Shown here: piece by piece, positions 6,001 to 12,000 of the stretch
Layout: every line of letters begins with the position of its first letter
How positions within the stretch are numbered: position 1 is the stretch's first letter
Source: a virus
Lineage: Duplodnaviria > Heunggongvirae > Uroviricota > Caudoviricetes
Direction: 5' to 3' (one strand)
IMG/VR virus record: IMGVR_UViG_2529293141_000015
Location: 1-64,000 of that record
Length of the DNA: 64,000 nucleotides
Position numbers: made by a program

Positions 6001-9000
6001 GGATGCACTACCACTACGAAAATAAATCGCGGAGATGAAAAGGAACAGTACATCATTGCCTGTGGTGCCGCTACACCATGGGGAGTATGCTATGATAAAG
6101 CCAATGCCCTATGTAAAAATGGATATAAAGACATTTTAAAGGAACAGGGATTTAACAGGAAAGAATTAACCATTGAGTGTAAATAAGGCCATCATTTGCA
6201 ACGTTGAAAAAATTCGCCCGTGCTACAGGGGAAAAAACTCCAGATCCGCTTCGTTTAACTACGAGGATTACCACTAATGGCGATGTTTACCCCCCCTCAT
6301 CCCGGAGAAATTATTGCTGATATTCTGGAAGATCAGAATATTGGAATCAGGGAACTGGCAAGAGCGCTTGATGTCGCGCCTTCCACTGTTCAGCGACTGG
6401 TTTCAGGTAATGCGACAATATCTCCTGAAATGGCTGTTCGTCTCGCTGCTGTCCTGGGTGGAACTCCGTCTTCATGGATTCGTCTCCAGACGGCATGGAG
6501 CCTTGAAAAAGCGGAAAGAGAAGTTGACGTATCTCATCTCTCAACAAAATACCGCCCGGCAGAAATTTCGCCTCATGCTTAACCACCGCGCCGTCATTCT
6601 GGCGGCGTCGGAGAGTGGAGGATATCAGGTTCCGAACTCTGCTTTGTTCTCCGCGTCCAGGATTTCTTCAATCTTCCGTACTCCCCGATTATTGTATCGG
6701 AAGCTTTCTACCTGCTTATCCGAATACGGGGATTTGTCGATGAACCATTTCCCGTATTGTTCTGTTTTGAGCATGTAGGTATTGGCAATGCGACCAACCT
6801 TGTTAGCGGATATTTTGAGTTGTGATCCAACTTCTGACGCCGAATAGTAATGTTCATTGATCATCGGTAGCGGGATTACGTTAGCGCCTACAACGGGATT
6901 AACCAGGCTGGCGGCAACGACCTGTTTAGCTTCCGGTGCAAGGTTAGGGAGGAAGTCGAAGAGGTCCTTCATTGTGTCGACGGTCATTTTCAATGCGCGT
7001 GCCTTACGGAATTCTTCAAGGCCATCCGGTGATTTCTTCGTGGTGGTTTTTTGTTGCAACTGCTGTTGCATTGATTCCAGTTTATCGACCAGCGAACGAC
7101 GAACGGCCTTCGACTCACGCGCGGCTACTCGCAGGGCTTGCTTGAAAGTCATTGTTATAACTTCTATTTCTGCGCCGTTTTTCTGACCTACGAAAATTTC
7201 GTAGGTCTCTCCTTCAAGCTCATCCTTAACTCTGGCAATGAAATCATTATTGCGAACGGGCCTTTCACTACATAATTTCCGTGCCTCATTGACCATTTTC
7301 AACAGCATCTGGCTGTCGATTGTTGCAGCCGGAAACGAAGACTGATTTGCAATATTGTTAATCATGTATTCTGTCCTTTTCAGATAAAAGAAATCCCCGC
7401 GAGTGCGAGGAAGTCAATCACTGCCGATATTCACCTTTATCGCGAACACCTTTACCGGTTTATCTCCGAAGTGTGTATGTGTGATTGTCTTGATTTCATA
7501 CCCTTCATACGGGACGTCAATTCTGCGGCTGGAATCGTCGCGCTTCGGATATCCCTTTGTGATAATCAGACGGTCATATTCCCGGAACATAATTCGCTTA
7601 TTCCAGTAGTCATTACACAGGCGATACTCTTCCGTTTTCTCCCCGCGAATCATGGCATCGAAGTATTCACCTTTGACGGCAAGTTGCAGGTTAGCCACGG
7701 TTAACCTCCTGCGGCGGTTCTGGTAGCGGCATCCAGTGAGTTACGTCATCCAAGATATATCCTGATAAATACGTGAAAGCTCTATATTTTTTGTAATCAA
7801 TTGGATTTACAACCCAGTTCCAATATGCGGCCACGATTTCACCTTGACTAAATGCCAGTAACATTTTGGTGTCTTCCGGCATTCGATCACTACAGCTTAT
7901 CCAACCATCCGGAGTTACCGGATGGGGTCCAGCGAACTCGGGAATGTCAGGACCTTTTCTGATAGCTTTAGCCAGATCCAGCGGGTCATCGTAAAGCCAG
8001 TCGCCAGTTTGTGGGTGATTTGCTTCTGCAAGCTGCGCAGCCCATTCAAGACCATCTTTTTGACCTTGGAGATAATCAAGCGGCAACTCTTCATGCTTAC
8101 TTGCAGGTTCGGCACAATGCAGCATGGCAGCGCGGTGACACCAGATAATCCAGCCAAGCGCCATATCCCATGCCATGTATTCTCTATCGCCATTTTTTGC
8201 CCTACGGCGATCTACAGATTCCCCGAAACGCTTCTCCATAAATAATTCATAGGCTGCTCGTTCATCCGATACTGCTGCCAGTGATGCCAGTGCAATTCGT
8301 GCCAGTTCCCTAAGATTTTCGCTATATGGTGAAGTATTATCACGATTGATTACGTGATTAGCTGTATCTATGAGAACTTGCTTTTGTTCTTCTCTGTTCA
8401 TAGTGGTCATCTCACTCTCCTTTGATGCGAATGTTTACAGCCTGGCAAGCTTCTTCGAGTACCCAGTCAACAGCGTCTTTCCACGCACCAGTCCCAACTG
8501 ACGGATTCTCATTTTTTACCTGCTCATAAAAACGCACCGCTTTAATCAGTCCTTCAGGTACTACTGGCGATGGCTGTTTAGCTTCTAAATCAGCAATTCT
8601 GTCCACCACGGCATCTACTGCATCTGAAAAACCGAACCAGTTACTCCACTCAGGCCTATCCCCGGTTGCTGCAAAATACATATCAGCTAAAGCAGACTCA
8701 GCATGGTCACGCTCGTTAATGAGTTGCTCTTCGCTTTTCTCCTGTTCGGCTATGCGCTTACTTCCATCCGCGATTACTCCCTCTGAAGTGGTTTACTGAA
8801 TTTGGCCACCTGAACAGAGGTGATATGCTCACCTCAGAACAACACAGGTGCCATAATGAAAAAAAGAAATTTCAGCGCAGAGTTTAAACGCGAATCCGCT
8901 CAACTGGTCGTTGACCAGAATTACACCGTGGCAGATGCAGCCAGCGCTATGGATGTCGGCCTTTCCACAATGACGCGATGGGTGAAACAATTACGTGATG

Positions 9001-12000
9001 AGCGGCAGGGAAAAACACCAAAAGCCTCCCCCATTACCCCGGAACAAATTGAAATCCGTGAGCTCAGGAAAAAGCTACAACGTATTGAAATGGAAAATGA
9101 AATATTAAAAAAGGCTACCGCGCTCTTGATGTCAGACTCCCTGAACAGTTCTCGATAATCGGGAAACTCAGGGCGCGTTATCCTGTGGCCACTCTCTGCC
9201 ATGTGTTCGGGGTCCATCGCAGCAGCTACAAATACTGGAAAAACCGTCCTGAAAAGCCAGACGGCAGACGGGCTGTATTACGCAGCCAGGTACTTGAACT
9301 GCATGGCATCAGCCACGGCTCTGCCGGAGCAAGAAGCATCGCCACAATGGCAACCCAGAGAGGCTACCAGATGGGGCGCTGGCTTGCTGGCAGACTCATG
9401 AAAGAGCTGGGGCTGGTCAGCTGTCAGCAGCCGACTTACCGGTATAAACGTGGTGGTCATGAACATGTTGCTATCCCTAACTACCTTGAACGGCAGTTCG
9501 CCGTGACCGAGCCAAATCAGGTGTGGTGCGGTGATGTGACCTATATCTGGACAGGTAAGCGCTGGGCGTACCTCGCCGTTGTTCTCGACCTGTTCGCAAG
9601 AAAACCAGTGGGCTGGGCCATGTCGTTCTCGCCGGACAGCAGGCTTACCATGAAAGCACTGGAAATGGCATGGGAAACCCGTGGTAAGCCCGTCGGGGTG
9701 ATGTTCCACAGCGATCAAGGCAGTCATTATACGAGCAGGCAGTTCCGGCAGTTACTGTGGAGATACCGGATCAGGCAGAGTATGAGTCGGCGTGGAAACT
9801 GCTGGGATAACAGCCCAATGGAGCGCTTCTTCAGGAGTCTGAAGAACGAATGGGTGCCGGCGACGGGCTATGTAAGCTTCAGCGATGCAGCTCACGCAAT
9901 AACGGACTATATCGTTGGATATTACAGCGCACTAAGACCGCACGAATATAATGGTGGGTTACCACCAAACGAATCGGAAAATCGATACTGGAAAAAACTC
10001 TAACTCGGTGGCCAGTTTTTGTTGACCACTTCACTCGTAATACTCACGCTGCTCGTTGAGTTTTGATTTTGCTGCTTCCAACTCATCCAGTAGCGCCAGC
10101 ACAACCTGAGGTGTGGCTTTCATACGAAATGCCAGCAATTTTTGAGGCGTTGCTACTGTTTCAATTGCTACTGCCGCCTCACGCAGTGCCTGGTAATTAA
10201 TTTCGCTCACTGGTTGCCTCCTTTGCGAAGCTCAGCGGCGAAAGATGTTGCTGCGGAAGCGATAATTGCATGCCGGTATTCACCATCAGAAAATAAAGAA
10301 TCTCCCTTAAGTGCATTGACGATACTCTGATGATTTTTTGCCAGCATCTCCACGCCCTGCGCCCGTACTTCAGCCAGGCATTTGCGAAACTCGGAAACGT
10401 ACTGTTCGACGCTCATTCCCCAGCTAAGTGGACATTCATTGAATGTTTCGCCTTCGTGCTCTTCATCAGGTAGCTCTTTGGTAAAGAACTCACGCTCAAT
10501 GGCGTGGAGTGTGTCAGCAAAACGACGTAAGTTACTCAAACCTACCGTAATGGAGAATTCAGGAGCATCACATCCGACGCCCATCTGCTGATAAACTGCT
10601 GTTTTGAAGGCCTTCAACTCCGCATTCTCCGCCGCCAGAGCCGAAAACTTCTCGTGTGCCAACTTAACAGCCGAATCAGCCTGCTTAATTGACTCAATCG
10701 CTTTCTGTTGGTCTTCGGCCAGCTTCGCTAAATTAGCCTCCAGTTCGGCTATGCGTTCGTTTAATGCATCTCGTTCATCCAGTAGTGACAGCACGGTTTC
10801 TGGCCCGGCCATAATTTTAAAGGCGTGAATCGCATCAATATCAATACCAAGCTCCTTGAGCTTCTTTTCGCTTAATAAATCATCATCACCTGGTAATATT
10901 GACAGATGTGTCATCGCTGTAATTGCGCGTTCCGACACGTCACGCAATACCTGATAGTCAATTTCGGTTGTCATATTTTCGTCTCGTTATGGGAGGGGAA
11001 TTGGTTGTAAGCTGGAATTGCCGGATGTTTACCCGTGTCCGGCGCACGACCTCACGTTGCAGCGTACGAGAATAGACTATTGCTCAGTATCGTTTGATGT
11101 CGGCTGAGGACATTCGCCTTGCTCTCACAACAGAGCAAGAAGCATGGACACCCCCTCACGATGTGATGATTGGTGAGTGTCGATCCCTGAATGATTGATG
11201 TTGTTAAACTCAAACATCTTGCTCCTGGCAATAGCCTCAACGGTATTCCAGAATACTAATAGTTCTGTTTTCTGCTCTGTTTTATCAGCAACAGGAAGTT
11301 TGATATGTTGTTGACATTTATTAATGCAACCATTTTGAATATGTTCCTCGTGCTTTTCATTGTCATAAGCATACAGCCCGACAAAAACATCTCGCACGTT
11401 ACGGGAAATATTTTCCAGATTCGTCTTTGGTTCCTTTATTAAATTAAGCACCGATAAATGGGCTTTAAGCGTATCCGCAGCTATTTTCTGAATATCCGCT
11501 GGTAAATCTTTAAATTGCATAGTATACCCTCCAAGAACTGTGTATTTTCTCGTGAAATATGAGCGATATGTCGTGACGTCCCTGTCACAGATTTCATCAC
11601 ACTGAGAACGTGCCGATGAAGGTTAAGATATCTTCTTCTTCGAAACGCTCTTTCAGCAGGTCACGGAACTCTTTGGCAATTTCTTCTTCCGCAGCTTCAA
11701 CACGCACGATACGTAGCACCAGAACAGGCTGTTCGCTTGTCAGAATGCTTAATCGCAGCGTGAATTCCCTGTTGCCCAGGCCCTCGTATGGGATGCATTC
11801 AAAGCGGAAAGTGGCAGGCATGATTTCTTTGCTTTTAGCCTCCACGGACTCCATGACTGAGCGGCTACCGCTGAAGTTTTGCTCTTCATATTCAGCACTG
11901 CGTTTTGCATCGATGGTAAGACGACGGACAGCAGAGATAGCCTGTTTGATATCCAGCACATTACCGTCGCTGTCATAGGCTGTGAGGAAGTCGGCCCAGT

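Follow-up and report, generated by a model that had tools for sequence, protein, structure and literature searches.

An intact ISEc52 copy interrupts an ea22 homologue in a lambdoid prophage

The stretch of DNA considered here, hereafter the window, comprises positions 1 to 64,000 of the IMG/VR virus record IMGVR_UViG_2529293141_000015 and carries a lambdoid 933W-type prophage of E. coli, in which a homologue of the phage lambda ea22 gene is split by ISEc52, an IS911-like insertion sequence (IS) of the IS3 family. The IS lies on the plus strand at 8784..10033 and is exactly 1250 bp long, both its ends and its length being read in the sequence, and its transposase genes are oriented antisense to the gene that it splits. 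The 5' fragment of this gene (10034..10210, minus strand) starts with the GTG codon at 10210-10208 and covers codons 1-59, that is the N-terminal domain and the first part of a coiled coil. The 3' fragment (8412..8783, minus strand) holds codons 60-181 and the stop codon (8414-8412), thereby covering the remaining coiled coil and a helical C-terminal domain that ends in IRIKGE. An AGGAGG ribosome-binding site (10217..10222, minus strand) is found 6 nucleotides upstream of the GTG, which itself overlaps the TGA stop codon of the upstream gene (GTGA).

The element begins with TGAAGTGG at 8784 and finishes with CCACTTCA at 10033, a longer reading of the termini within 8200-10500 giving TGAAGTGGTTTACTGAATTTGGCCACC from 8784 and GGTGGCCAGTTTTTGTTGACCACTTCA up to 10033. 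The terminal inverted repeats are imperfect: the left, orfA-proximal one (8784..8819, plus strand, TGAAGTGGTTTACTGAATTTGGCCACCTGAACAGAG) matches the reverse complement of the right one (9998..10033, minus strand) at 25 of the 36 outermost positions. Between them lie orfA (8856..9158, plus strand), which codes for 100 amino acids with a Pfam HTH_Tnp_1 match of 52 bits, and the orfB frame (9104..10003, plus strand), which comprises 299 codons from an ATT in the -1 frame and matches Pfam rve (the DDE catalytic domain, 110 bits), rve_3 and rve_2. A slippery heptamer, A AAA AAG (A6G), is read on the plus strand at 9107..9113, and a role in frameshifting can be proposed for it from what is known of IS911 and the IS3 family, in which such a heptamer directs the programmed -1 frameshift that produces the OrfAB transposase. 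The copy is thus intact, with the full IS911-type architecture of the IS3 family and no part broken. It shows the length of the family (~1.2-1.5 kb), its imperfect inverted repeats and 5'-TG…CA-3' ends, its two overlapping open reading frames (ORFs), the helix-turn-helix orfA in phase 0 and the DDE/rve orfB in phase -1, joined by A6G, and its short target duplication of 3-5 bp. The latter consists here of one CTC at 8781..8783 and another at 10034..10036, which on the minus strand is codon 59 (GAG, Glu) of the 5' fragment, and of GGC/GGC at a second copy described below, both empty sites holding a single triplet. Target duplications of 3-5 bp and copy-out-paste-in transposition are characteristic of the IS3 family (PMC10379815). 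An earlier interpretation of the window made from its sequence alone, the sequence-only reading, had placed a 1250 bp IS at 8784-10033 with CTC on both sides, and this is what the sequence contains.

In silico excision of 8784..10033 together with one CTC joins 10210..10037 to 8783..8412 and generates a minus-strand ORF of 546 nucleotides, a multiple of three, without internal stop. The product of 181 amino acids agrees with the protein of about 180 residues that had been expected to run from the GTG at 10210, preceded by AGGAGG, to the stop at 8412. However, the reading frame is restored whether zero, one or two CTC copies are removed, so that restoration of the ORF does not by itself prove a target duplication. 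What the excision shows is only that the boundaries of the IS are right within a multiple of three and that the ~33 codons from 8780 to 8681 are open. The logic of the sequence-only reading therefore holds as regards the restored ORF but not as regards the duplication, for which the proof comes from the natural empty site. In the interrupted gene, the outermost TCA of the right terminus of the IS gives a TGA on the minus strand straight after codon 59, so that the gene can make only a stub of 59 amino acids.

Such an empty site exists in E. coli 2012EL-2448 (NZ_CP027586.1), where the reconstructed 546 bp are found unbroken, at 546/546 identity and with a single CTC. The surrounding prophage follows the window collinearly, at 95-99% identity, from 2249 to past 48242, except for a few replaced modules. 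At least 80% of the uninterrupted 546 bp is held by 19 complete genomes. In addition, a single gene call covers a homologue designated P0002 (182 amino acids, 94% identical, annotated as 'ead/Ea22-like family protein'), whose cluster counts 40 member sequences and which appears in 103 blocks of the contig collection. At all four loci examined, P0002 directly follows a gene of 254/255 amino acids that is 99.7% identical to the window's upstream gene, and the junction in these four IS-free loci (L013-L016) reads GAGTATTACGAG directly followed by GGAGTAATCGCG, with a single GAG that corresponds to CTC on the plus strand. The loci of 2012EL-2448 and of strain E2855 likewise translate to an unbroken protein of 181/182 residues. 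The natural empty site proves the target duplication. The comparison with IS-free prophages that the sequence-only reading had proposed thus bears out its claim that the two ORF pieces are one gene, and the single-GAG empty sites together with the continuous gene dispose of the two findings that it had named as fatal to it, namely a junction without continuous ORF and homologues showing two separate genes.

It could be argued that the two pieces are separate genes and that the CTC flanks and the restored frame arose by chance, given that a 3-bp match between flanks has a chance expectation of 1/64 and that the frame is restored whatever the number of CTC removed. Against this stand the natural unbroken alleles, at 100% and about 95% DNA identity, and the junction peptide REYYEGVIADGSKRIA, which runs without a break through lambda Ea22 and every close homologue. 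The unbroken alleles, the lambda alignment and the reading of the junction already refute this explanation, whose probability is practically nil.

As for the name of the element, it had been given as IS911 in the sequence-only reading, and the comparisons made here correct this point. The element agrees at 1250/1250 positions with an E. coli NCTC9967 copy labelled 'IS3-like element ISEc52 family transposase' in RefSeq, whereas identity is only 94.2% (72 mismatches, 1 gap) with the plasmid copy of S. dysenteriae NCTC 9718, annotated as 'IS3-like element IS911 family transposase'. The same split is seen in the plasmid collection, in which the name ISEc52 goes with copies at 97-99.9% identity and the name IS911 with those at ~94%. 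Among complete E. coli genomes, copies with at least 99% identity occur in over 1000 records. By ISfinder convention, which served as the test for IS911 in the strict sense, two elements share a name when they are at least 95% identical in nucleotide sequence. The 94.2% measured here falls below this value, this figure being relative to the RefSeq-annotated IS911 copy and not to the ISfinder reference X17613, and both names resting more generally on the RefSeq annotation of the compared copies instead of on ISfinder reference sequences. Judged from these labels and identities, the element is ISEc52, a sister of IS911 and not IS911 in the strict sense; no difference from ISEc52 was found, the copy being merely another one at a new site.

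The resemblance to IS911, the S. dysenteriae prototype and the model for copy-out-paste-in transposition, is nonetheless close. The element has 1250 bp here against 1249 bp in the compared copy, and the two share TG…CA ends, imperfect inverted repeats of ~36 bp with a near-identical right end, an orfA of 100 amino acids whose product differs by one residue from that of the IS911-annotated copy, the A6G frameshift site, an orfB starting from AUU (ATT in the DNA) and a 3-bp duplication. All these features would suit the view that the element is IS911 proper. Differences are found at positions 9-11 of the left inverted repeat (TTT here, CAC in the IS911-annotated copy), at about a dozen positions of OrfB and at the OrfB C-terminus, which reads …RYWKKL* here and …RYWKNSNS… in the IS911 copy. 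In the light of the 72 mismatches and the gap, the full identity with an ISEc52-annotated copy and the division of names in the plasmid collection, IS911 proper is highly improbable.

The reconstructed protein matches the Pfam family PF13935 (Ead_Ea22) with 45.2 bits, the threshold being 27, and its N-terminal 104 residues align with lambda Ea22 (NP_040612, 182 amino acids) at 46% identity (E 2e-19). The start GTGAGCGAAATT is the same as in lambda ea22, with its GTG codon, and the two proteins have in common the N-terminus MSEIN.QALREAA, the coiled-coil motif KSKLNEQREYYEGVI, which continues as.DGSKRIA (in its longer form, AKSKLNEQREYYEGVI.DGSKRIA), and the C-terminal IRIKGE; the location of the two genes, between exo and int/xis, is also alike. 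The Ea22 proteins have a coiled coil between their N-terminal domain and a variable C-terminal domain that ends in K/RGE, and they play a pro-lysogenic role (PMC7093339, PMC10834534), an activity known from lambda, Phi24B and related phages only (PMC7093339). The same architecture is recognized here in the lambda alignment, in a helix at residues 34-98 of the model described below and in the IRIKGE C-terminus (cf. PMC7093339). Taken together, these similarities show that the reconstructed protein is a true lambda Ea22 homologue, as had been proposed in calling the gene ea22-like; its closest known counterparts are lambda Ea22 and the Ea22 homologues of Stx phages.

The IS cuts the most conserved stretch of the coiled coil, after YYE and before GVI, with …KSKLNEQREYYE on one side and GVIADGSKRIA… on the other. 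In the AlphaFold model of the 94%-identical P0002, which has a predicted local distance difference test score (pLDDT) of 75 (~90 over the N-terminal 60 residues) and a predicted template modelling score (pTM) of 0.34, residue 59/60 falls in the middle of the long helix formed by residues 34-98. Compared to lambda Ea22 and to the homologues P0003 and P0012, 28 coiled-coil residues are missing, equal to four heptads (ERERNQQYIKRRDQENEDIALTVGKLRV); the gap sits at residues ~43/44 of the reconstructed protein (lambda ea22 being L017:2348-2896), and the short form is widespread, as seen from the P0002 cluster. The C-terminal domain also sets the protein apart from lambda Ea22: the structure of the lambda domain has been solved and is mixed alpha/beta, whereas the domain found here is unrelated in sequence and predicted to be all-helical. 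Variation of this kind is known, since C-terminal domains differ among Ea22 homologues (PMC7093339, PMC10834534). A sequence search of the PDB gave chance matches only, none of them to the lambda Ea22 C-terminal domain, and a Foldseek search of the PDB with the AlphaFold model gave no significant match, all E values being above 0.5. No full-length relative is found in the phage collection, where the best match covers 72% of the protein from residue 52 on; this partial match reflects mosaicism of the N-terminal module.

The upstream gene (10207..10974, minus strand) codes for an intact Ead/Ea22-like protein of 255 amino acids with a PF13935 match of 57.4 bits. The paralogy that had been suggested between it and the interrupted gene is real but distant: the two proteins share the Pfam domain and 27% identity over 146 amino acids (E 3e-5), and their C-termini are unrelated.

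Three minor caveats attach to the interpretation of the locus as an ISEc52 insertion into an ea22 homologue. RefSeq flags the IS-free ORF, intact as it is, as 'pseudo, incomplete, missing N-terminus' in both 2012EL-2448 (L001:4001-4546) and E2855 (L005:2497-3045); the short allele lacks four heptads relative to lambda, and its function before the insertion is putative; and the choice between the names ISEc52 and IS911 depends on the RefSeq labels of the compared copies. The first two points would fit an ORF that was already a dead remnant when the IS arrived, in which case nothing functional was disrupted. Nevertheless, the ORF is open from a lambda-type GTG preceded by a strong ribosome-binding site, and the pseudogene flags are probably an annotation artefact. 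The deletion amounts to exactly four heptads, so that the coiled-coil register is preserved, and the short form is widespread with a conserved open frame (the 40 members and 103 blocks of P0002) and is named elsewhere by NCBI as a complete ead/Ea22-like protein. A remnant that was dead beforehand is therefore unlikely. No evidence contradicts the interpretation of an ISEc52 insertion into an ea22 homologue.

A second ISEc52 copy, 100% identical and inverted, is present on the minus strand at 50706..51955, between the GGC triplets at 50703-50705 and 51956-51958. Its empty site is found at 99.5-99.8% identity over 800 bp in five complete genomes, and a sixth covers 97% of it at 99.2%. As each copy has its own matching triplets (CTC and GGC, respectively) and the gene order is collinear, the two copies represent two independent simple insertions. 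A composite transposon made of the two copies is ruled out, because the outer and inner flanking triplets differ and the matching pairs lie within each copy, and an inversion between them is ruled out by the collinearity with 2012EL-2448. Two identical inverted copies could mediate an inversion of 40 kb, but none has occurred. The second copy stands ~95 nucleotides after the tail-tip-fibre gene and ~110 nucleotides before a 46-residue ORF of the Hok/Gef family (52065..52205), so that a position within the leader of a hok-type toxin mRNA is possible. In NCTC9967, too, the ISEc52 copy has such a neighbour, mokC.

Matches at 90% coverage (the ATCC 25922 group and THO-006) were set aside as being ISEc52 at other sites, near other ea22-like genes. 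ISEc52 is present in lambdoid exo-xis regions in ATCC 25922 (L003:2794-3963), in THO-006 (L004:1573-2742) and in strain 24A16CRGN010 (H88). Among these three copies, one adjoins a truncated DUF1382/orf63 homologue, another directly follows the 3' end of an ea22-like gene, and the third lies between pieces of a PAPS-reductase gene. ISEc52 insertions may recur in exo-xis regions; the ranking of these other sites is biased by the flanks of the query, and no site preference can be claimed from it.

The interrupted allele itself can already be found in public data: over 6180 bp that include the IS, the assemblies GCA_001188105.2 and GCA_000225145.2 match the window at 100% identity. Gene calls for the 59-residue stub exist on seven contigs, and one draft contig ends inside the IS. 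A search of 5,426 complete E. coli genomes found this insertion in none of them, and an exact search of the GTDB species-representative genomes for its left junction returned nothing. A known IS, a known gene family and an insertion already deposited make this an ordinary event of a known kind.

Contig AAYRDD010000031.1 of GCA_016591315.1 (L012) ends exactly at the equivalent of window position 10034, and its upstream module differs from that of the window. This suggests either that the interrupted allele also occurs in a second mosaic background or that the same site was hit independently. Such a contig lends some support to the view that the allele was acquired ready-made, through homologous recombination with another prophage. 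However, a contig break is indirect evidence of an IS, an independent insertion at the same site is indistinguishable from spread by recombination, and the identity of the feature would be unchanged in either case; we give the ready-made allele a small but real chance. In line with the genuine and apparently recent disruption announced by the sequence-only reading, the identity of the flanks with the IS-free allele (0 differences in 546 bp), the 100% identity of the IS with copies elsewhere and the identical second copy indicate that the insertion is recent.

With respect to the prophage as a whole, the exo-xis-like region is on the minus strand, which carries in order RecT (14178..15197), the YqaJ exonuclease (13492..14181), further on the interrupted gene and, further on again, an integrase of 444 amino acids with Arm-DNA-bind_2 and Phage_integrase domains (576..1910). 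This places the interrupted gene within the leftward early operon, between exo and int, which is also where ea22 is found in lambda. Also on the minus strand, a restriction-modification pair (17426..19845) stands beside a LexA-family repressor gene (19940..20653); the restriction-modification genes of the collinear 2012EL-2448 prophage code for an Eco57I-type methylase-domain protein and a BsuBI/PstI-family endonuclease. The plus strand carries replication genes, an antiterminator, a SASA-family esterase gene (26629..28647), lysis and head genes and the tail-tip fibre (48841..50610). From the antiterminator region to the esterase gene (25500..26650), no ORF is large enough for a Shiga toxin A subunit. 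No tRNA gene was found anywhere in the window; the 2012EL-2448 prophage has tRNA-Ile/Arg/Arg at the place equivalent to 25500..26650. Window positions 1..2248 are unmatched in that prophage, which has there a 389-residue integrase next to a tRNA-Arg. Since both the left ends and the integrases differ, the two related prophages use different integration modules.

Altogether, a simple transposition of an intact ISEc52 explains the locus almost certainly. The element entered the ea22 homologue at codon 59/60, in a prophage that is lambdoid, 933W-like and stx-less. The OrfAB transposase, produced by the -1 frameshift at A6G, would excise a circular copy of ISEc52, which would then integrate through a staggered 3-bp cut whose repair would leave the CTC duplication. 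This copy-out-paste-in pathway is proposed for the element by virtue of its family membership (PMC10379815, IS911 work).

In terms of consequences, a stub missing the entire C-terminal domain and the greater part of the coiled coil would amount to a loss of function, and by analogy with the genetics of lambda and Phi24B this would entail the loss of the pro-lysogenic Ea22 activity. The downstream DUF551 gene (7691..8410, minus strand) has its ATG 1 nucleotide after the ea22 stop (TGAGATG), so that translational coupling is probably lost and expression of DUF551 probably lowered. An ASCH gene (7414..7698) is also located downstream of the IS. A scan of 8300-10400 for promoters and terminators gave no signal above chance in or around the IS. 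One could further imagine that induction or excision of the prophage is affected, as Ea22 would be knocked out and 1.25 kb of antisense IS inserted between pL and DUF551…xis/int. We consider such an effect quite unlikely; if true, the insertion would be a step in IS-driven prophage domestication.

The finding has little importance beyond annotation. A single IS-disrupted ea22 pseudogene is the proper annotation for the 59-residue and 89-residue ORFs beside the IS, and the IS itself should be named ISEc52 and not IS911. Biologically, the locus would provide a natural ea22 knock-out in a 933W-like prophage, which could be compared with its IS-free twin in 2012EL-2448 as regards the function of Ea22.

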